Virus record (IMG/VR): IMGVR_UViG_2778261276_000008
Coordinates: 1 to 25,191 of that record
Direction: 5' to 3' (one strand)
Length of the DNA stretch: 25,191 bases
Source: a virus
Lineage: Duplodnaviria; Heunggongvirae; Uroviricota; Caudoviricetes
A program made the translations under genes and the position numbers. This document shows, piece by piece, positions 1-22,571 of the stretch (its first letter is position 1; each line of letters opens with the position of its first letter). A model generated the notes under the pieces. It saw only the letters and a program-made list of their open reading frames with translations. It searched no databases and was not told where the DNA came from.

Positions 1-1053
1 TTACGGGGTAATGCCAACCGCTGCCGCCACTTTGTCGCCACTTGGCAGTGTTGCCAGAGGATTGAAACGGAGCGCCGTTTCCAGATGATCCGGTGCCAGA
101 TGTGCGTAACGCATAGTCATTTTTATATCGTGGTGTCCGAGAATTTTTTGTAAGGCCAGAATGTTTCCACCCGACATCATGAAGTGCGCCGCAAACGTAT
201 GGCGCAGAACGTGTGTGAGTTGACCGCGAGGGAGCACGATAGACGTTTTTTCCATCACGGATAAAAATTGAAAATAGCAGTCTGTGAAGAAATTGAACCC
301 ATCAAGCGCCATGATCTCTTCGTAAAGCTCTTTACTGATAGGGATGCTTCTGTTTTTCTTCCCCTTCGTTCTTACAAAGGTAATTCGGTATTTGGTCACC
401 TGTGAACGAGTAAGATTTACGGCTTCTCGCCAGCGTGCGCCTGTGCTTAAGCATATCTTAACTACCAGTGCCAGAATTGGGTCCTGACGTTTGCAATCAG
501 CCAGTAATTCAACAATCTGCTCATGGGTAAGCCATGCCATCTCTTTTTCTGCGATGGTGAATTTTCGCATGTTCTCCAGTGGGTTTGGATATGACCATTC
601 GCCCAGGCGGGATAGTTCGCTAAAAACACTACTTAGATAGCTTTGCTCTAGGTTAATGGTGACCGGGCTGGCTCCTTTCTTCCATTTCTCGCTGAAGTAG
701 ATCTCACCTGTCAGTCGTTTATCTCGATAATGGGCAAACATTTTAGATGTGAGATCGGTTGCAAGGGGATTGCCCAGAGCGTCAACCATCAGCAGCAATT
801 TGTCATAGACATGCTGCCCAGCAGTCAGAGATTTACCATGTAGTTTGAACCATAGCTCAACCACGTCTTTCAGGGTTCGACGATCTACTGATTCGCCCAG
901 CCAGGGCTTTGCTTCGGTTTCTTCCATCGTGTGACGCTCAAAAGCCAGTGCTTCGCCTTTGGTGGCGAATTGTTTACGCACACGACGCCCACTACGTCCG
1001 GCGGGGTAACATTCGCAAAGCCATTTTCCTGTGGTGAGTTTTCGTACTGCCAT
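1..1053 (-). CDS. int: Tyrosine integrase (P2/186 Int family), 350 aa
   Basis: Full ORF with the stop codon at 1..3 on the reverse strand. The C-terminal region has the tyrosine-recombinase pattern (R...HxxR...Y; LRHTFAAH, MRYAHL). Sits at the prophage end next to the att repeat. Confidence 0.9.
   Translation of the reverse strand: MAVRKLTTGKWLCECYPAGRSGRRVRKQFATKGEALAFERHTMEETEAKPWLGESVDRRTLKDVVELWFKLHGKSLTAGQHVYDKLLLMVDALGNPLATDLTSKMFAHYRDKRLTGEIYFSEKWKKGASPVTINLEQSYLSSVFSELSRLGEWSYPNPLENMRKFTIAEKEMAWLTHEQIVELLADCKRQDPILALVVKICLSTGARWREAVNLTRSQVTKYRITFVRTKGKKNRSIPISKELYEEIMALDGFNFFTDCYFQFLSVMEKTSIVLPRGQLTHVLRHTFAAHFMMSGGNILALQKILGHHDIKMTMRYAHLAPDHLETALRFNPLATLPSGDKVAAAVGITP
19..41. repeat. 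Candidate attL core (CGCTGCCGCCACTTTGTCGCCAC), inside the 3' end of int
   Basis: Seen in sequence: matches 22337..22359 at 21 of 23 positions (two C/T differences). Confidence 0.5.
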
Positions 1054-1134
1054 AAAAAATGCCCTCCAATAGAGAGCATTTTTACTGTATGTATAACCAG
1101 TGTCAATGTATTAGATACATGTTGTCATACATCA

Positions 1135-2109
1135 TCACTTTTTGGTAATGCTGTCATCATTTGCTGCTGATTTTTTATCTACAAGTGTACCTAGAATGTT
1201 AAATAAATTTGGAGGTGGCTGCATTTTATCTGCGAATGCAGAATTAGCAGACATGTTCCAATCTTTAAACACATCAATAGCATCTTGTTTTGTCGCAGTT
1301 GAACCATAAATTTGTAAGAAGACTTCACCAAACATTAGAGCATGTTGTCTGTCTTTTCTTATGATTGCTTCATGTGTGTATTTTTTTGAATTGTTTAAAC
1401 AAAAATAAGAAAGCCAAGAAAGTAATGCAACCCCAAGCAAGCCTCTAGTGAAATAATAAAAAAGTTCAATGGGGGTAGTATCTTTTATATCTATTTTATA
1501 AAAAAATGTTAAAAAGGCGGCACTTATAGATAATAATGAAAATAGTATTCCGGCTATCGCCCAATTGTAAGACATTGCAGTGAAATCTTTATCATCCTGC
1601 TGTAGTTTTTCTTTGACGCCCTGCACATATTTAGGAACTTTTTCGTCAATTTTATTTTGTTGGATTTTGCTTGAAAGTTCTTGGTTTTGAAGCTTTAGCT
1701 CATTGTTTTTGGCGTGTTGGAAATCTAGCTGTGATGCTAGTTTTTTTTTACTTTCCATTTCATTTAATAATTTTTCATTCAACTTTTCCATTTGCTCTGA
1801 ATGAGAGTTATGGATTTTTTGCAATTCACGCACTTTATGCTCTAATTTAGTGATTTTTGAAATGTAATCATCTATCTCACTATTTTTTAAGGATGTGCGT
1901 TCGGGGTTAATGTGCTCACAATTATATTTTTTAGAAAAATATTTACTGTAAACATCAAAAAGCACATCGAATTCATTAAACTTTAAAGAATTCAATAGTT
2001 TTTTCAAATCATTATAGACACTATCGGATAAATATGATTTTAATTCCTCTAGTTTAATGATTCTAGAGATATATTCTTCACTATTATCTTTCCAATTGGA
2101 ACCGGCCAT
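1135..2109 (-). CDS. Hypothetical protein, 324 aa: coiled-coil N-terminal region plus two predicted transmembrane helices (cargo gene)
   Basis: Long ORF, visibly AT-rich compared with flanks. SD-like GAGGA about 7 nt upstream of ATG. Lys/Glu/Leu-rich heptad-like region around aa 80-170. Hydrophobic helices at about aa 183-204 and 224-238. Lies 12 bp downstream of the cI-like gene on the same strand. Confidence 0.6.
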   Translation of the reverse strand: MAGSNWKDNSEEYISRIIKLEELKSYLSDSVYNDLKKLLNSLKFNEFDVLFDVYSKYFSKKYNCEHINPERTSLKNSEIDDYISKITKLEHKVRELQKIHNSHSEQMEKLNEKLLNEMESKKKLASQLDFQHAKNNELKLQNQELSSKIQQNKIDEKVPKYVQGVKEKLQQDDKDFTAMSYNWAIAGILFSLLSISAAFLTFFYKIDIKDTTPIELFYYFTRGLLGVALLSWLSYFCLNNSKKYTHEAIIRKDRQHALMFGEVFLQIYGSTATKQDAIDVFKDWNMSANSAFADKMQPPPNLFNILGTLVDKKSAANDDSITKK

Positions 2110-2121
2110 TCCAATATCCTC

Positions 2122-3066
2122 TTATAATTCTTCTATAAGCAAAAATTTGCATTTAGCAATAACATCAATGTCTGAAATATTACATTCAAACGATAAATAA
2201 TTGTCTGAGATTTTTAATCTTCCTACAGGTATCCTAGTTAGGGTTCGAATACTCACTTTTCCTTCTATTTCAACAATCCATTTACCATCTGTAATTTCAT
2301 CAAATGACTGATCACATAGGTATGTTTTTTTTGGGGTACTGACAATCAGTGGTAATTGGATTGAGTCTGGTATTAATGCTTTATCAAGCATATAGAAATC
2401 TGACTCAAATAGATTCCCATCAGTGATTTTTTTGCGTGTAATAGCAATTACATCATTTCTTGCATCGTCAAACTTTGGGCCTTTACCAGTAGTTAGCCAC
2501 GTTAGTGAAGTACCCGTTTCTAGAGCGCACTTAATTATCCAGTCTGAAGGAAAGACATCACGCATATATCTTGTGGCTAATGTGCTTTTTGAAATACCTA
2601 AGTGATCAGCTAAGGCTTGGCGCGTCTTATAACCGTAAGCCTTAACAATTCGTTCTATTGCTTCCTTGCCACCTCGAGAAAAATCAACGGAGTTTTCATT
2701 GTCGAACTTTTGTTGTTTATAGTGAACATCATGATAAGAACCATCTTCGGAGTGTGTTTCAACATGTTGTTCTGGTGAAGGGGATGGCATTTGCTCGTCA
2801 TCATCTGAACCAAATGCTAGCCATTTAATTGATGCTCCTGTTTCCATTGAGCAGATAACTACCCAATCTGCAGGAAATGTATCGCGGGCATATCTGTTAG
2901 CCATCGTGCTTTGGGAAATACCTAGATGGTTACAGAATGCCTGGCGTGACTTGAAGCCATAAGCCATGAGTATCCGCTCAATTACTTTCTGACCACCGCG
3001 ATTCTGTATGACAACGGCTTTCATATCGTCATTCATATGGCGAAATGTGAATTTTTGAGTTGACAT
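2122..3066 (-). CDS. cI: CI-like immunity repressor with tandemly duplicated 186-CI-type HTH domain, 314 aa
   Basis: Two internal repeats (about aa 14-86 and 117-195) share a GG..IERI..AYG(F/Y)K.RQA...HLGIS.ST.A.RY.RD.FP.DW...C..ETG.S..WL..G pattern, resembling the N-terminal DNA-binding domain of coliphage 186 CI as I recall it. Divergent from the apl-like gene, as in 186. Confidence 0.75.
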   Translation of the reverse strand: MSTQKFTFRHMNDDMKAVVIQNRGGQKVIERILMAYGFKSRQAFCNHLGISQSTMANRYARDTFPADWVVICSMETGASIKWLAFGSDDDEQMPSPSPEQHVETHSEDGSYHDVHYKQQKFDNENSVDFSRGGKEAIERIVKAYGYKTRQALADHLGISKSTLATRYMRDVFPSDWIIKCALETGTSLTWLTTGKGPKFDDARNDVIAITRKKITDGNLFESDFYMLDKALIPDSIQLPLIVSTPKKTYLCDQSFDEITDGKWIVEIEGKVSIRTLTRIPVGRLKISDNYLSFECNISDIDVIAKCKFLLIEEL

Positions 3067-3154
3067 GTTCTTTATGTGAACCTATTCTCCGTTTTGTGAT
3101 GTCTTTATCACGATTAAAACCAGCTCACCACAAGCTAAAAGGAGATGTTGCATC
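3067..3154. promoter_or_regulatory. Lysis/lysogeny switch region (divergent or face-to-face promoters, candidate operator)
   Basis: Intergenic region between divergent cI-like and apl-like genes. Contains the palindrome GTGAT-N6-ATCAC at 3096..3111 and an AAGGAG SD for the apl-like gene at 3139..3144. Confidence 0.45.
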
Positions 3155-4959: not shown

Positions 4960-5813
4960 GCACCATCCTGAAATGGGCGGGTAATAAAACCGCCATTATG
5001 TCCGAACTGAAAAAACATCTTCCTGCTGGCCCGCGGCTGGTTGAACCTTTCGCGGGTTCTTGTGCTGTGATGATGGCGACGGATTACCCCAGCTATCTGG
5101 TTGCGGATATTAATCCTGATTTAATCAACCTCTATAAAAAGGTTTCTGCTGATTGTGAGGCGTTTATATCTCGCGCCAGAGTTTTATTTGAGAACGCAAA
5201 CAGGGAGGTGGCTTATTACAACATAAGGCAGGAGTTTAATTACTCAACTGAAATTACTGATTTCATGAAAGCGGTATATTTCCTGTATCTCAATCGTCAC
5301 GGTTACCGTGGGTTATGTCGCTATAACAAGAGCGGGCATTTCAACATTCCCTACGGTAATTATAAAAATCCGTATTTCCCTGAAAAAGAAATTCGCGCAT
5401 TTGCAGAGAAAGCCCAGCGAGCAACGTTTATCTGCGCCAGCTTTGATGAAACGCTGGCGATGCTGCAGGTGGGGGATGTGGTGTATTGCGATCCGCCTTA
5501 TGACGGTACGTTTTCCGGTTATCACACTGACGGCTTCACTGAAGATGACCAGTATCACCTGGCATCCGTTCTTGAACATCGGTCATCAGAAGGACATCCC
5601 GTCATTGTTTCTAACAGTGACACATCCCTGATCCGTTCGCTGTATCGCAATTTTACTCACCACTACATCAAGGCAAAACGCAGCATCGGTGTGGCAGCTG
5701 GTGATAGTAAATCTGCAACAGAAATCATTGCTGTTTCCGGGGCGCGCTGCTGGGTGGGATTTGATCCTTCGCGTGGCGTAGATAGTTCTGCTGTGTACGA
5801 GGTGCGTGTATGA
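4956..5813 (+). CDS. dam: DNA adenine methyltransferase (Dam family, N6-adenine, GATC-type)
   Basis: Motif I FAGSCAV and motif IV DPPY. N-terminus [11 protein letters not shown] resembles Dam. GGAGGT SD 6 nt upstream of ATG at 4956. ATGA overlap with upstream and downstream genes. Confidence 0.85.
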
Positions 5814-8224
5814 GTCATGACGATATGAGCAACTCTAGCGGCTTTAACGAGGCCGCTGCATCATTTTCATGGAACGGCCCGAAAAAGGCCATTAACCCTT
5901 ATCTGGACCCGGCGGAATTTGCGCCGGAGTCTGCACTTTCAAACCTGATCACTCTGTATGCTGCCGATAACGAGCAGGAACAACTGCGCCGCGAGGCACT
6001 GAGTGAGCAGGTCTGGGAGCGTTATTTCTTTAATGAATCCCGTGATCCTGTCCAGCGCGAAATGGAGCAGGATAAGCTCATTAGCCGCGCAAAGCTTGCG
6101 CATGAGCAGCAGCTTTTTAACCCGGACATGGTCATTCTGGCAGATGTCAGCGCCCAGCCTACCCACATCAGCAAGCCGCTGATGCAACGTATCGAATACT
6201 TCAGCAGCCTGGGCAGGCCAAAGGCTTATTCCCGCTATTTGCGTGAGACGATTAAGCCATGTCTGGAGCGACTGGATTGTGTACGCGACAGTCAGCTATC
6301 CGCTTCTTTCCGTTTTATGGCAAGCCATCAAGGGCTTGAGGGCCTGCTGATCCTGCCTGAAATGAGTCAGGATCAGGTAAAACGCCTGTCCACCCTGGTA
6401 GCTGCGCATATGAGCATGTGCCTTGATGCCGCTTGTGGCGATTTATATGCCACCGATGACGTTAAGCCAGAAGAAATCCGCAAGACATGGGAAAAGGTGG
6501 CAGCGGAAACCCTGCGACTGGATGTTATCCCGCCTGCGTTTGAGCAACTCCGCCGGAAAAGAAACCGCCGCAAACCCGTGCCCTATGAACTCATACCGGG
6601 TTCGCTGGCACGTATGCTTTGCGCCGACTGGTGGTATCGAAAATTGTGGAAGATGCGTTGCGAATGGCGGGAAGAGCAGTTGCGTGCTGTCTGCCTGGTC
6701 AGCAAAAAAGCATCTCCCTATGTCAGCTATGAAGCCGTGACGCATAAACGTGAGCAGCGCCGTAAGTCGCTGGAGTTTTTCCGTTCTCATGAACTGGTGA
6801 ACGAAGACGGCGACACGCTGGATATGGAAGATGTGGTAAACGCCAGCAGCAGCAACCCGGCACATCGCCGCAATGAGATGATGGCCTGTGTTAAAGGTCT
6901 GGAGCTTATCGCAGAAATGCGTGGTGACTGCGCCGTTTTCTACACTATCACCTGTCCGTCACGTTTCCATTCCACGCTCAACAACGGCAGACCCAACCCG
7001 ACCTGGACAAATGCGACGGTAAGACAAAGCAGCGATTATCTGGTCGGCATGTTTGCTGCATTTCGTAAGGCTATGCACAAAGCCGGGTTGCGCTGGTATG
7101 GCGTGCGGGTGGCTGAGCCGCACCATGACGGTACTGTGCACTGGCATCTCATGTGTTTCATGCGCAAAAAAGACCGCCGCGCCATTACTGCATTGTTGCG
7201 TAAGTTTGCCATCCGTGAAGACCGCGAGGAACTGGGTAATAACACAGGTCCACGCTTTAAATCTGAGCTGATAAACCCACGCAAAGGAACACCGACAAGC
7301 TACATCGCGAAATACATCAGTAAGAACATTGACGGGCGTGGTCTGGCTGGCGAGATCAGCAAGGAAACGGGTAAATCCCTGCGTGATAATGCTGAATACG
7401 TTAATGCCTGGGCGTCTCTGCATCGTGTTCAGCAATTCCGCTTCTTTGGCATTCCGGGGCGTCAGGCTTACCGTGAACTGCGATTGCTGGCTGGTCAGGC
7501 GGCAAGGCAACAGGGGGACAAAAAAGCAGGTGCGCCGGTACTGGATAACCCGCGCCTTGATGCCATCCTGGCTGCTGCTGATGCTGGTTGTTTTGCCACC
7601 TACATCATGAAGCAGGGCGGCGTACTGGTTCCCCGCAAATATCACCTTATCAGAACAGCTTATGAAATTAACGAAGAGCCGACTGCTTATGGCGATCACG
7701 GTATTCGTATTTATGGCATCTGGTCACCCATTGTACAGGGCAAGATTTGCACTCATGCAGTGAAGTGGAAAATGGTTCGTAAGGCCGTTGACGTTCAGGA
7801 GGCGGCAGCCGACCAGGGCGCTTGCGCCCCTTGGACTCGTGGCAATAACTGTCCCCTTGCTGAAAATTTGAACCAACAAGGGAAAGACAAATCAGCTGAT
7901 GGGGACTCCAGAACGGATATTACCCGTATGAATGACAAGGAGTTGCACGATTACCTGCACAGTATGAGCAAAAAAGAGCGCCGGGAACTGGCTGCAAGGT
8001 TACGCCAGGTGAAACCGAAACGGCGTAAAGACTACAAACAGCGAATTACAGACCATCAGCGACAGCAGCTCGTCTATGAACTGAAGTCCAGGGGATTTGA
8101 TGGCAGCGAGAAAGAAGTCGATTTGCTCCTTCGCGGCGGCAGTATTCCGTCAGGAGCAGGCCTGCGTATCTTCTATCGGAACCAGCGTCTGAAGGAAGAT
8201 GATAAGTGGCGGAACCTGTATTAA
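5810..8224 (+). CDS. A: Replication initiation endonuclease (P2 gpA family, rolling-circle HUH), 804 aa
   Basis: HUH-like HWHLMCF motif and YIAKYISK catalytic tyrosine motif. Size and position match P2/186 gene A. Confidence 0.9.
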
Positions 8225-8318
8225 TTACGCGGGTTAACAATTCGTGCTCTTAATAATACCAGGCATATCAGGCCGATGAACGTAAAAAAACGTTTTACAT
8301 CAGTAAGATTATTATATA

Positions 8319-8334
8319 CTGTAAATATAAACAG
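8319..8334. promoter_or_regulatory. LexA box (CTGTAAATATAAACAG) in the promoter of the tum-like operon
   Basis: Exact CTGT-N8-ACAG with an AT-rich spacer, 43 bp upstream of the ATG at 8377 and overlapping -10-like hexamers. Position is equivalent to the 186 SOS promoter p95. Confidence 0.6.
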
Positions 8335-8376
8335 TGGTTATGTGTACAGTATTGTTTTGGTGTCATAGGAGGAAAG

Positions 8377-8565
8377 ATGCAGGACTATTTTTTGGAGTCT
8401 TTGAAGCTCCAGCGCATTGATTTTTTTCTTAAGCTTGTAGCGGCTAGTGAGTGTAGTGATGAAGAGAAGGGGCTGGCTCTGCAGTGGGTTTCTGAATTGA
8501 CTGATGAACTCATGGCAAAAATCAGAAGCCACGAATACAACCGCTCAATGGATGTCATCAGCTGA
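8377..8565 (+). CDS. Small protein, 62 aa, first gene of the LexA-controlled operon
   Basis: AGGAGG SD 5 nt upstream. Immediately followed by the DinI-like gene. Confidence 0.5.
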   Translation: MQDYFLESLKLQRIDFFLKLVAASECSDEEKGLALQWVSELTDELMAKIRSHEYNRSMDVIS

Positions 8566-8575
8566 GGTGACTTTT

Positions 8576-8809
8576 ATGCGCATTGAAATAATGATCGATA
8601 AAGAGCAGAAGATTAGCCAGTCTACCCTGGACGCACTTGAATCCGAGCTTTACCGCAATCTGCGCCCCCTGTATCCCAAAACGGTAATTCGCATTCGCAA
8701 AGGTAGCTCTAACGGTGTGGAACTAACCGGACTGCAACTGGATGAAGAAAGAAAACAAGTGATGAAAATTATGCAGAAGGTGTGGGAGGACGACAGCTGG
8801 CTGCATTAA
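8576..8809 (+). CDS. DinI-family protein (186 Tum-like SOS antirepressor module), 77 aa
   Basis: Sequence MRIEIMIDKEQKISQ...LYRNL...IRIRKGSSNGVELTG...VMKIMQKVWEDDSWL resembles E. coli DinI (MRIEVTIAKT... ending in the W-rich acidic tail). GAGGTG SD 5 nt upstream of the ATG. Confidence 0.7.
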   Translation: MRIEIMIDKEQKISQSTLDALESELYRNLRPLYPKTVIRIRKGSSNGVELTGLQLDEERKQVMKIMQKVWEDDSWLH

Positions 8810-9001
8810 GAAATGTTGCCCCCAGGAGGATTCATTCTGATGGGGGCTAGTTTGGGCAATGAGTGAAATAAGGCGTAAGGTGGGCGGTTATTTTGATAAG
8901 TGATCGTCCGCTTTGTGTCAGAAGCAGAAGTGGGAGTGTCTGAGACTCTCTAAAAGTTGATGATTCACTTACAAAACCATTTTCCTGATGGATGCTTACA
9001 C

Positions 9002-9337
9002 TTACGAATGATCATTCTGTTTAGTCTTCATGAGAAAATCCCGAATCTTTGCCAAGTTTGAATTTTCGGGGATTGAATCCATGTACGGATCACGCTCAAA
9101 CACTAATTGCTCAGATTCAACGAAAGCCTGCCACTCTAATGGGTCTAGCTCAAATCCCATTGCTGTCATATCACTTTCATCTTCCCCCTCGATCCAGTGG
9201 ACTAAATAAAACAATTCATCATCAGGAGAATCATCCTCACCATCAACAATATCAACATCGGTTACAGTGATACGTAGGGTGGGATCGATTTTTGAGACAT
9301 AAATTCCTAACTGTGGTATAGGGGGAATATTGTTCAT
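9002..9337 (-). CDS. Strongly acidic hypothetical protein, 111 aa (cargo)
   Basis: ORF with an AAGGAG SD 5 nt upstream. By my count 26 Asp/Glu against 7 Lys/Arg. No recognisable catalytic motif. Confidence 0.55.
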   Translation of the reverse strand: MNNIPPIPQLGIYVSKIDPTLRITVTDVDIVDGEDDSPDDELFYLVHWIEGEDESDMTAMGFELDPLEWQAFVESEQLVFERDPYMDSIPENSNLAKIRDFLMKTKQNDHS

Positions 9338-9811: not shown

Positions 9812-11551
9812 ATGGAATTGCACGCATATACTAGAACCATATCAGAATTACTTTCGGTTAATAGAAAATATGTTGTCCCAAGATTTCAGCGAGAATATTC
9901 TTGGGTAAAAGAACAAATTAATGAGCTTTGGTATGATGTAATATCTAATATCAAATTAGAGAATGATTTCACATATTCTAATAATGAGTATTTTATTGGT
10001 TCTTTAGTTTTAGTTGGAGATGAAACAGGAAGGGAAATGCAAATAGTTGATGGTCAGCAACGACTTACAACTCTTACGATTTTTCTTTCCGTTTTATGTG
10101 AGGCGTTCAAGCTAAACAATCAATCAGATTTAGCATCTGCTCTATTTGAAAATTATATTGAAGGTCGTGATGATGATGGTAAGAAATTTTTTAAGCTAAT
10201 AAATGAAACACCTAAGCCTTTTTTTCAGAAAAATATCCAACACCTTAATAAGGCAGATGACGCACCCCAGACACAAGAGGAGCGAAATCTCTTGTCTGCA
10301 TATAAGGAAATTACATCGTTAGCCTCAAAGGAAAAATTGGGAAAGTATTTTTCAGTCGAAATTAATACTGAAGATAATTATTCCAGTGTATTAAAAGCAA
10401 TTAGGGATCAGATTTTAAGATTTCTTAAGATAATTTTTATTACTGTTAATGAAGAGGACGAGGCGTATACAATATTTGAAACATTAAATGCGAGAGGGAT
10501 GAATTTAAGTTTTGTAGATCTAATTAAAAATAAATTATTTAAAGCGTTAAACAACCCTCATCCAAATGATGATGCAAAAGATAATTGGAAGGCTATACGT
10601 ACTACTTTAATGCAAAGAAATGGTGTAGGGACTTTTGAAAATTTCATGAGGCACTGGTGGGTGTCGAAGTATGCTTACGTAAGCAATGAAAATCTTTATA
10701 AGTCCTTTATTGGAAAATGGCGTAAGGGGGAAATTAATCCGGTAACCTTTATTGAAGAATTGAAACAGGATGCCGAATTGTATGTACGCTTGTCATCTCC
10801 TTTGGAGAGTGATTATCCACAAATGGAAGATAAACAGATATTCCATTCGTTGAATGCAATTAGGCTATTTGGTATAACGCAGTGTAGACCTTTTTTATTA
10901 GCTTTACTAAAGGCAAAACAGCAAAGGAGATTGCGTCAATGTGATCTTTTAAAAGCAGTTAAATATATTGAAAATTTTCATTTTGTATTTAATGCGATAT
11001 GTTCATTAAGGCCGTCAGGGATAGAAGGTGCATATTCTAAGGCCGCAAGAGCAATAAATTCACCAAATGCTACAAAAGTAACTAATGGTACAACAATTGA
11101 ACAGTTATGCTTGTTGTTGAGTAACCGCAAGCCAGAAATTTCTGTATTCACTGAAAATTTCAGAGATATATTATTTACTGATGACAACTCCAAGCAAAAA
11201 AGATTGGTCCAATATATTATAAATAAATTTGAAATGGCCCGTCATAATGGAGATGAGTATCGTCCTAATTCTATTTCTTTAGAGCATATAATGCCTCAAA
11301 GTGCTGGCAACGATAAGGAAATAGGAATGATTGGAAATATAATCCCTCTGTCAAAAGAACTTAATGAGCAAGCTGGTAATAAATCATTGGCACAAAAGCT
11401 CTCTATCTATTCACAATCGGAGTTTAGATTGACGGAAGAGTTTATTAGTGAACTTGAAACCATTTACCATAATGAATGGAATCTCCAGTCTATTATTCAG
11501 AAGACAGATAGAATGGCTGGTGAGGCTTATATGAATATTTGGAGTCATTAA
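9812..11551 (+). CDS. DUF262/DUF1524 (GmrSD-like) putative type IV restriction / anti-phage nuclease, 579 aa
   Basis: N-terminal DUF262 hallmarks (RFQREYSW at about aa 23-31, DGQQRLTTL at aa 80-88). C-terminal His-Me-finger-like SLEHIMPQS (His about 492) followed by Asn residues. AT-rich single gene. Confidence 0.75.
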   Translation: MELHAYTRTISELLSVNRKYVVPRFQREYSWVKEQINELWYDVISNIKLENDFTYSNNEYFIGSLVLVGDETGREMQIVDGQQRLTTLTIFLSVLCEAFKLNNQSDLASALFENYIEGRDDDGKKFFKLINETPKPFFQKNIQHLNKADDAPQTQEERNLLSAYKEITSLASKEKLGKYFSVEINTEDNYSSVLKAIRDQILRFLKIIFITVNEEDEAYTIFETLNARGMNLSFVDLIKNKLFKALNNPHPNDDAKDNWKAIRTTLMQRNGVGTFENFMRHWWVSKYAYVSNENLYKSFIGKWRKGEINPVTFIEELKQDAELYVRLSSPLESDYPQMEDKQIFHSLNAIRLFGITQCRPFLLALLKAKQQRRLRQCDLLKAVKYIENFHFVFNAICSLRPSGIEGAYSKAARAINSPNATKVTNGTTIEQLCLLLSNRKPEISVFTENFRDILFTDDNSKQKRLVQYIINKFEMARHNGDEYRPNSISLEHIMPQSAGNDKEIGMIGNIIPLSKELNEQAGNKSLAQKLSIYSQSEFRLTEEFISELETIYHNEWNLQSIIQKTDRMAGEAYMNIWSH

Positions 11552-21307: not shown

Positions 21308-21826
21308 ATGAACGCACAATTAACCGAAATCATGCGCCTTATCACCAACCTGATCCGCACTGGGGTAGTCACCGAAGTGGACAGGGAAAACTGGCTTTGC
21401 CGAGTGAAAACGGGCGACCTTGAAACTAACTGGATCAGTTGGCTGACGCTGCGTGCAGGAAATGCCCGGACATGGTGGCGACCATCGGAAGGTGAGCAGG
21501 TGGTGCTGCTGAGTCTGGGCGGTAATCTGGAAACCGCGTTTGCCCTGCCTGCGGTCTACTCAAACCAGTTTCCGCCACCTTCAGGCTCTGAGGACGGCAA
21601 CGTGACGGAATACCCGGACGGCGGCTGGTTTGAATACGAACCCGCCACCGGGCGCTGGTATGTCAGGGGCATCAAATCAATGGTCATTGAGGCCGCTGAC
21701 AATATCACCCTGAAAACCAGTGAGTTTGTGCTGGAGGCTGACCGCACGCGTATTAACAGCGAAGTGGTGATCAATGGTGGCGTTACCCACATTCCGTTTT
21801 GCCGCTTCTCCCAAACCAACGTTTAA
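21308..21826 (+). CDS. V: Baseplate spike/assembly protein V (P2 gpV family), 172 aa, probably C-terminally truncated
   Basis: N-terminus MNAQLTEIMRLITNLIRTGVVTEVD resembles P2 gpV. Shorter than P2 gpV (about 211 aa). No W, J, I, H, G, FI, FII, E, T, U genes follow. Confidence 0.75.
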   Translation: MNAQLTEIMRLITNLIRTGVVTEVDRENWLCRVKTGDLETNWISWLTLRAGNARTWWRPSEGEQVVLLSLGGNLETAFALPAVYSNQFPPPSGSEDGNVTEYPDGGWFEYEPATGRWYVRGIKSMVIEAADNITLKTSEFVLEADRTRINSEVVINGGVTHIPFCRFSQTNV

Positions 21827-22027
21827 GAAAATGCAGAGGTAACAGCTAACTGGCATCATCTCCGGTTTTTATTCAGGGGAATGCCAGTGAAAGTCAGTGG
21901 TTTTAAACAGCCGATAGATGATGCGGAATGGACCATTACGACTCTGACACATACCGTCAGCCCGGATAACGGTTTTATGACCAGTCTGGAGCTTGAAGTG
22001 AGGATTGATGATTTCGAAATGGAATGA
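21827..22027 (+). pseudogene. D: Remnant of the 3' end of tail gene D, in frame with V after its stop codon
   Basis: Open frame ending ...MPVKVSGFKQPIDDAEWTITTLTHTVSPDNGFMTSLELEVRIDDFEME, located immediately upstream of ogr where gene D ends in P2. Resemblance to the gpD C-terminus is from memory only. Confidence 0.45.
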
Positions 22028-22117: not shown

Positions 22118-22336
22118 ATGATGATTTGCCCACTGTGTGGAAGTGCCGCCCATACTCGCAGCAGTTTTCAGGTATCTTCATTGACCAAAGAGCGTTACAA
22201 CCAGTGCCAGAACATTAACTGCAGCCATACTTTTGTTACCCATGAAACTTTTGTTCGTTCGATTGCAACGCCAAAAGAGTCAAATCCGGTTCAGCCGCAT
22301 CCAATGAAATCAGGACAGGTGGCGCTCTCTCTTTGA
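22118..22336 (+). CDS. ogr: Ogr/Delta-family zinc-finger late transcription activator, 72 aa
   Basis: CPLCGSAAHTRSS...KERYNQCQNINCSHTF matches the P2 Ogr CxxC...CxxxxC zinc-finger pattern. Last phage gene before the att repeat. Confidence 0.85.
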   Translation: MMICPLCGSAAHTRSSFQVSSLTKERYNQCQNINCSHTFVTHETFVRSIATPKESNPVQPHPMKSGQVALSL

Positions 22337-22359: not shown

Positions 22360-22422
22360 CGTTAAAAAACAGTGCTTATAACATCATGATTTTAAAAGGC
22401 ATAAATTTCAGGCAACAAAAAA

Positions 22423-22459
22423 CCCATCAACCTTGAACCGAAATGGCGGGGTTGATGGG
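22423..22459 (-). terminator. Intrinsic-terminator-like hairpin downstream of ybjL
   Basis: 10-bp stem CCCATCAACC / GGTTGATGGG followed by TTTTTTG on the minus strand. Confidence 0.4.
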
Positions 22460-22571
22460 CTCCACAAAATGGGGACATCAAAGAAAAGCAGTGGCACTAA
22501 TTAAGACTGATGCCCTGCGGAAAAGTTCTGCGGTTGTGCAAAAAAATTTCATTTTCAGGGCAACTTCAGTT

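Follow-up and report, generated by a model that had tools for sequence, protein, structure and literature searches.

The window, by which we mean the whole stretch of 25,191 bases that was analysed, is a Fels-2-type P2-family prophage, followed on its 3' side by the host genes rybB, ybjL and ybjM. A 186-type CI, an ORF at the position of Apl and CII are all present, and on the plus strand the order after cI runs from the Apl-position ORF and cII through several small early genes and a Dam-type methylase to replication gene A. The gap 3' of gene A is 152 bp long and contains the sequence CTGTAAATATAAACAG, read at 8319..8334; behind it lie two small open reading frames, of 62 and 77 aa, which we call ORF62 and ORF77. 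An initial annotation of this DNA had described them as a two-gene operon with a LexA box at its promoter, and the coordinates and sizes it gave for the two frames are correct. Each frame has its own RBS and its own ATG; the ORF62 TGA stop lies at 8563, and the spacer between the two cistrons is 10 nt. The features on which our analysis draws are collected in Table 1.

Table 1. Features of the prophage that bear on the operon, with their positions in the window.
Feature	Position	Strand	Basis or remark
int	1..1053	-	
324-aa ORF between cI and int	1135..2109	-	coiled-coil-like, hydrophobic C-terminal half; phrog_2628 (unknown function)
cI, 186-type immunity repressor, 314 aa	2122..3066	-	two HTH domains and a C-terminal domain; presumed target of the antirepressor
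replication gene A	5810..8224	+	
putative -35, TTTACA	8294..8299	+	5/6 against TTGACA; 17 bp upstream of TACTGT
putative -10, TACTGT, left half of the LexA box	8317..8322	+	by analogy with 186 p95
LexA (SOS) box TACTGTAAATATAAACAGTG	8317..8336	none	core CTGT-N8-ACAG at 8319..8334; uniqueness, shuffles, conservation
RBS AGGAGG	8367..8372	+	read from the sequence; 4 nt before the ORF62 ATG; conserved
tumA-like gene, 62 aa (ORF62)	8377..8565	+	antirepressor; homologue of the N-terminal part of 186 Tum
RBS GAGGTGA for ORF77	8564..8570	+	read from the sequence; overlaps the ORF62 stop codon
tumB-like gene, 77 aa, DinI family (ORF77)	8576..8809	+	Pfam DinI; C-terminal half of 186 Tum
possible weak intrinsic terminator	8818..8847	+	7-bp G+C-rich stem GCCCCCA...TGGGGGC, then TAGTTTG; putative, weak
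convergent 111-aa ORF	9002..9337	-	length and position as the DUF8087-hit gene in two E. coli prophages (L019, L026)
GmrSD-type nuclease	9812..11551	+	Pfam GmrSD_N, GmrSD_C; PADLOC HEC-06, E 1e-92
ogr, intact	22118..22336		
RybB small RNA gene	22414..22492	-	Rfam, 105 bits; flanked by ogr and ybjL, at the right prophage end

The two gene products

ORF77 matches the Pfam DinI profile (PF06183) over profile positions 1-63 of 63 with an E-value of 6.6e-23 and 81.3 bits (cutoff 24.2), it is 41% identical to residues 71-145 of 186 Tum (E 3e-24), and it aligns over residues 1-75 with the E. coli DinI structure 1GHH (E 2.7e-6); its PHROG is phrog_189. The DinI-like second product that had been read from the letters alone is thus borne out. 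Since ORF77 reaches 42.7 bits against the NCBIfam equivalog for chromosomal DinI, where the cutoff is 111, we take it to be a member of the DinI family and not a dinI orthologue. The protein is identical to its counterparts in Fels-2 and in E. coli HS. Membership in the family suggests that TumB would bind RecA filaments and modulate RecA coprotease activity.

The first gene of the operon, immediately 3' of gene A in a P2-family genome, is harder to place by name: in the databases its product is "hypothetical" everywhere, in PHROGs it is of "unknown function", and occasionally it is mislabelled "levan regulatory protein". Sequence searches of Pfam, NCBIfam and the PDB with ORF62 returned no family and no structure, and pairwise BLASTP found no similarity between ORF62 and 186 Tum, between ORF62 and PSP3 TumA, or between PSP3 TumA and 186 Tum, so that profile methods were needed to see the link with Tum. 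When a profile of the ORF62 family (alignment A4, 34 diverse members) is compared by hhalign with 186 Tum, residues 4-46 align with residues 4-46 over 43 columns at a probability of 95% and an E-value of 3.9e-8; the same profile matches the "tum protein" of a Yersinia phage at a probability of 96.8% and PSP3 TumA weakly, at 6%. The PHROG matches of ORF62 are phrog_698, phrog_8554 and phrog_1993, and the N-terminus of 186 Tum matches all three; 186 Tum finds the PHROG of ORF62 with an E-value of 2.4e-5, and ORF62 finds that of PSP3 TumA (phrog_1993) with an E-value of 0.002.

As judged by these profile comparisons, ORF62 is a remote homologue of the N-terminal 46 residues of 186 Tum. The initial annotation had allowed that alignment might reveal the 62-aa product to be unrelated to Tum, which the hhalign match and the PHROG cross-matches argue against. 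Its proposal that the function of Tum is divided over two ORFs also stands, with ORF62 corresponding to Tum residues 4-46 and ORF77 to residues 71-145; 186 Tum does have a length of 146 aa, in keeping with the figure given there. The AlphaFold model of ORF62 is a two-helix hairpin (pLDDT 88.6) with a conserved cysteine in the turn. A Foldseek comparison of this predicted hairpin with viral models found nothing significant (best E 0.17), a null result that is uninformative because a two-helix fold is too simple.

An exhaustive profile search collected the ORF62 family into 85 clusters at 50% identity, nearly all of them stand-alone proteins of 50-75 aa, and at E<=0.001 it contained no fused Tum-like protein. 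In the assembly collection, 38,529 blocks record the exact ORF62 protein, and of 5426 complete E. coli genomes 1126 carry the tumA-tumB cassette. Many diverged TumA-like proteins in alignment A4 share a C-terminal tail, K(N/S)PQxGGxxSGGxx(L/F)Q, which the window protein does not have. The tumA homologue of Escherichia phage 500465-1 (L013, 701..889) carries a short out-of-frame stretch, ERGWLCSG for EKGLALQW, after which the frame is restored; the stretch reflects either a sequencing error or two frameshifts that compensate each other.

Which of the two products triggers induction? It could be argued that the DinI-like ORF77 does so, for example via RecA or CI, and that ORF62 is an accessory or a leader peptide. 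ORF77 is, after all, the only one of the two that databases name, all the products of 186 tum, including the shorter ones that are initiated internally, contain the DinI-like domain, and those shorter products are annotated as modulating SOS induction. The genetics of a close relative speaks against this. In the Phollow study (PMC12055606) a gene given as "tum (locus tag ECHS_RS04495)" was deleted in the prophage DuoHS of E. coli HS, and after this in-frame deletion mitomycin C no longer induced lysis or virion foci. That locus tag belongs to a 189-bp "hypothetical protein" gene that immediately precedes the DinI-like gene (ECHS_RS04500), and positions 8377..8565 of the window show 0 nucleotide differences from ECHS_RS04495; in HS, then, induction was abolished by deletion of the ORF62 orthologue alone. 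Moreover, the upstream gene of PSP3 is reported as the antirepressor in PMC3121763, several P2-family phages of the inducible type combine a LexA box with the small gene but lack an annotated DinI gene, and in 186 the DinI-like product that starts internally is itself annotated as a modulator rather than an inducer. We consider it quite unlikely that ORF77 is the trigger, and we keep ORF62 in that role. TumB may nevertheless contribute to induction, since the published in-frame deletion of tum could also have lowered tumB translation.

The LexA box and the putative promoter

By a LexA box we mean a 16-bp palindromic core CTGT-N8-ACAG with an AT-rich spacer, lying in a sequence near the 20-mer consensus TACTGTATATATATACAGTA, and the segment 8317..8336 is such a sequence. 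The core has a single match in the 25,191-base window, against a chance expectation of 0.26. This uniqueness is weak evidence when taken alone, because 22 of 100 shuffled windows contain at least one bare CTGT-N8-ACAG, and it is this number that lends some substance to the idea that the match is fortuitous or vestigial and that the operon is constitutive or silent in the window element. The full 20-mer, however, which has 3 mismatches to the LexA consensus, was equalled in 0 of the 100 shuffles.

The decisive evidence that the box exceeds chance is the comparison across phages. We compared the locus with those of 186, Fels-2, PSP3, two Yersinia phages, Cronobacter ESSI-2, Erwinia ENT90 and Escherichia ev015, and in all eight, which come from different genera, a LexA box with 1-3 mismatches lies just 5' of the small ORF that follows gpA. 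In an alignment of the nine diverged intergenic regions the box is the sole invariant block, and the flanks are essentially unalignable. The box lies over the putative -10 in the same way as p95 of 186 is annotated, and lexA(Ind-), like the tum deletion, abolishes the mitomycin C-induced lysis and virion foci of DuoHS (PMC12055606), whose -35-to-box segment is identical to that of the window; the differences between the two promoter regions are confined to outside that segment. That the box is an accident or a relic in this element appears very improbable in this light, and the canonical LexA box described in the initial annotation, with its sequence as given there, is confirmed.

The promoter is best understood by reference to 186. 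In the 186 record, p95 with its LexA site and the tum gene are annotated at the corresponding place behind gene A, and the window arrangement TTTACA-17 bp-TACTGT can be set against TTCACA-18 bp-TACTGT of annotated p95, where the -10 is likewise inside the LexA site. A generic promoter scan of 8100..9100 called no promoter; it passed over the p95-like promoter because the -10 matches only 3 of 6 positions. The assignment, including the exact hexamers, is thus made by analogy with p95 and should be considered putative. Among the sampled E. coli prophages the -35 hexamer is unchanged in all 10, and the LexA box is unchanged in 9 of the 10, the tenth having one substitution inside the N8 spacer. 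Across these ten loci, whose ORF62 proteins are identical, the segment reaching from the -35 through the box shows two single substitutions in total, while the 5' leader downstream of the box is variable.

At the other end of the operon, the stem that may act as a weak terminator folds with -22.6 kcal/mol as RNA, with a z-score of only -1.6, and its position matches that of the annotated partial terminator t95a of 186. Between the cistrons, at 8554..8571, a scan also marked a hairpin resembling a terminator. We discarded the idea that this hairpin couples translation of the two genes, because its z-score is -1.15 and its sequence is not kept in SEN8 or in the Klebsiella phage.

Two cistrons or a broken gene

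In 186 both modules lie in one ORF of about 146 aa, whereas in the window we find two cistrons in different frames. Both are under strong purifying selection. When ORF62 is compared with its counterparts in SEN8 and in the Klebsiella phage, dS is about 1.0-1.3 and dN/dS is 0.06, and for ORF77 the same comparisons give dN/dS of 0.07-0.10. The cistrons are offset by +1 in the window, Fels-2 and HS, by +2 in SEN8 and in the Klebsiella phage and by 0 in PSP3. Because of these differing offsets we rejected a programmed +1 frameshift as a means of making a fused Tum. In ENT90, ESSI-2, YenM324 and ev015 the LexA box and the small gene are followed by convergent genes directly 3', with no DinI gene annotated downstream. 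186 also expresses its DinI-like part separately, from an internal GTG start according to its record.

The initial annotation had raised the question of whether the split reflects a frameshift, and one can imagine that the two ORFs are what is left of a fused 186-type tum after a recent frameshift or nonsense mutation in a decaying prophage, the system then being non-functional. The prophage is indeed defective, and the frame of ORF77 is open for 25 codons upstream of its ATG, overlapping the end of ORF62, so that one +1 shift would give a fusion of about 140 aa, near the 146 aa of 186 Tum. But this explanation is hardly tenable, given that the HS prophage, which is inducible, shows the same split with an identical ORF62, as do 10 of 10 sampled loci, that close versions of the split occur in Fels-2 and in Klebsiella and Salmonella phages, that each cistron has a separate RBS and ATG and dN/dS of 0.06-0.10, that the frame offset varies among relatives, that the members of the ORF62 family nearly all stand alone, and that the small gene occurs where no DinI gene is annotated. 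The antirepressor and the DinI-like part are two modules that are found alone, adjacent or fused, and not a broken gene.

State of the prophage

Relative to the prophage of E. coli HS, the window is colinear except in the cI region (1112..3139), at the accessory spot after the operon and at one jump in the tail genes, which leaves baseplate gene V at an internal point (21789) and lands at the 3' end of gene D (21874). About 10.9 kb, comprising baseplate, fibre, sheath, tube and tape-measure genes, is therefore missing, and the prophage is defective, as the initial annotation had supposed. The junction 21789..21874 was found in no complete E. coli genome of the collection. What the window retains is int, cI, apl, cII, A, head genes, lysis genes and ogr. 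Because the tail genes are lost and the regulatory, replication, head and lysis modules are kept, induction would probably still derepress this prophage, and perhaps lyse the cell, without yielding infectious particles. The RybB gene directly adjoins the right end of the prophage, which places the attachment site at or next to rybB.

The spot beside the SOS operon is variable and corresponds to the position of orf97 in 186. In sister prophages its cargo includes a reverse transcriptase, AIPR, TIR, PIN and an OLD-like nuclease.

The repressor of the window matches Pfam Phage_CI_repr in two stretches (E 3.1e-58) and Phage_CI_C (E 2.7e-31), and it aligns with 186 CI. PADLOC gave no match for the ORF of 324 aa that lies between cI and int; this ORF accompanies a CI of 314 aa also in L020, one of the E. 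coli prophages. In the E. coli prophages (loci L019-L028) the identical 62-aa TumA is linked to at least 7 types of CI that share 36-62% identity. The lengths of the repressors beside the identical TumA are 189, 198, 210 (two types), 292 (two types) and 314 aa; those of 292-314 aa, including the window CI, have a duplicated Phage_CI_repr HTH domain, and similar tandem-HTH CIs occur in Klebsiella phages.

There is in addition a LexA-like box before int. On the minus strand at 1083..1102, about 30 bp upstream of the int start, the sequence reads CACTGGTTATACATACAGTA, with the core CTGG-N8-ACAG, and it occupies the spacer between the two hexamers of a site that resembles a promoter, TTGACA-17 bp-AAAAAT (1078..1106, minus strand). 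Its half-sites are those of the chromosomal dinI box. Between this box and the int ATG there is a hairpin with a T-run that contains the int RBS. The -35, both half-sites and the hairpin, the last with compensatory changes, are conserved in six prophages, where the remainder varies, and an inverted repeat ATGTATG...CATACAT further upstream is conserved in the same six. Homology with HS and the Klebsiella phages stops at 1111, just past the -35. Through this box, int may be under SOS control.

Discussion

Our analysis indicates, with high confidence, that the DNA behind gene A holds an SOS operon belonging to a P2-family prophage of the Fels-2/PSP3 type, a split form of the tum system of coliphage 186. 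How would such an operon work? In an undamaged cell LexA would occupy the box at 8317..8336 and keep the operon off, since the box would cover the -10 region of the p95-like promoter. Upon DNA damage, RecA-stimulated self-cleavage of LexA would free the promoter, and one mRNA would then give rise to two proteins. The TumA-like helical hairpin of 62 aa would bind the 186-type CI and stop it from binding its operators, and the inactivation of CI would turn on the early lytic operon. The DinI-like TumB would act not on CI but on RecA filaments, tuning the SOS signal. For 186, it is published, as cited in PMC3121763, that Tum binds CI and blocks its DNA binding. That the window TumA binds the 314-aa CI directly is an inference, since this CI is just 49% identical to the HS CI with which the genetics was done.

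While the above identifies the operon, it leaves knowledge of the SOS control of P2-family prophages unchanged. The operon is the SOS switch of Fels-2/PSP3-type P2-like prophages, which had been described and functionally tested before, and the split arrangement was known as well; our finding is correct but ordinary, because the identical 62-aa gene has already been shown to be required for induction in E. coli HS. A paper on the Salmonella SOS regulon, which used a strain without Fels-2, has nothing on the tumA-tumB operon. For annotators the practical consequence is that the ubiquitous 62-aa "hypothetical protein" beside a prophage DinI gene is a Tum-type antirepressor, and for the window itself it is that a prophage without a tail probably still responds to DNA damage.

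Only two observations go beyond the literature consulted, namely the invariant TumA that occurs with many diverged CIs and the LexA-like box before int. The company of so many diverged repressors suggests that the TumA antirepressor is not specific to one immunity type. A picture in which one invariant TumA serves many immunity types and a second SOS input possibly acts upstream of int is tentative, and we would not yet bet on it. If TumA recognises a surface common to all the CIs, one SOS-induced prophage could relieve the repression of heteroimmune P2-family prophages that share its cell, and this would be possible even from a remnant without tail genes such as the window prophage. More generally, an invariant antirepressor that is uncoupled from highly variable CIs would bear on the cross-talk between co-resident prophages.

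Comparison with known systems

The closest system is that of DuoHS, with which the window shares identical ORF62 DNA, an identical ORF77 protein, the same LexA box, the same position after gene A and the same chromosomal site, between rcdA and rybB/ybjL. Unlike the window prophage with its missing tail genes, the HS prophage is complete and infectious. The HS CI has 189 aa and one HTH domain, whereas the window CI has 314 aa and two, and the accessory genes beside the operon are different.

The order of LexA box, small antirepressor gene and separate 77-aa DinI-like gene after gene A is also that of tumA/tumB in PSP3 and of STM2728/STM2726.1 in Fels-2, whose cassette has 96.9% DNA identity to that of the window. 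The PSP3 record annotates both tumA ("similar to 5' end 186 tum; UV induction of prophage") and tumB, and the Fels-2 record refers to PSP3 TumB. In both phages, according to PMC3121763 (Lemire et al.), tum is split by a stop codon and the antirepressor activity lies in the upstream gene. PSP3 TumA belongs to another sequence subfamily (phrog_1993) than the window protein (phrog_698), and the PSP3 cistrons are in the same frame with a TAG plus 3 nt between them, whereas those of the window are in different frames and 10 nt apart. The dinI-gfoA and dinI-gftA operons of the Gifsy prophages of Salmonella are similar in kind, being LexA-repressed operons that pair a DinI homologue with a small antirepressor, which binds a non-cleavable repressor and thereby inactivates it, but they have the reverse order, with dinI first (PMC3121763).

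With 186 tum, finally, the operon has in common its genome position, the geometry of the putative promoter and LexA box, and a presumed target CI of the same family. ORF62 is homologous to residues 4-46 of 186 Tum, and ORF77 to the C-terminal 76 residues of that protein. Unlike the window, 186 has both modules in a single 146-aa polypeptide and an operon that extends into orf97; in the window the next gene on the same strand is the GmrSD-type nuclease, beyond the convergent ORF. The parallel to the 186 tum system that the initial annotation had drawn thus holds in genome position, in the geometry of the box and the putative promoter, and in both products, each of which matches one half of Tum.
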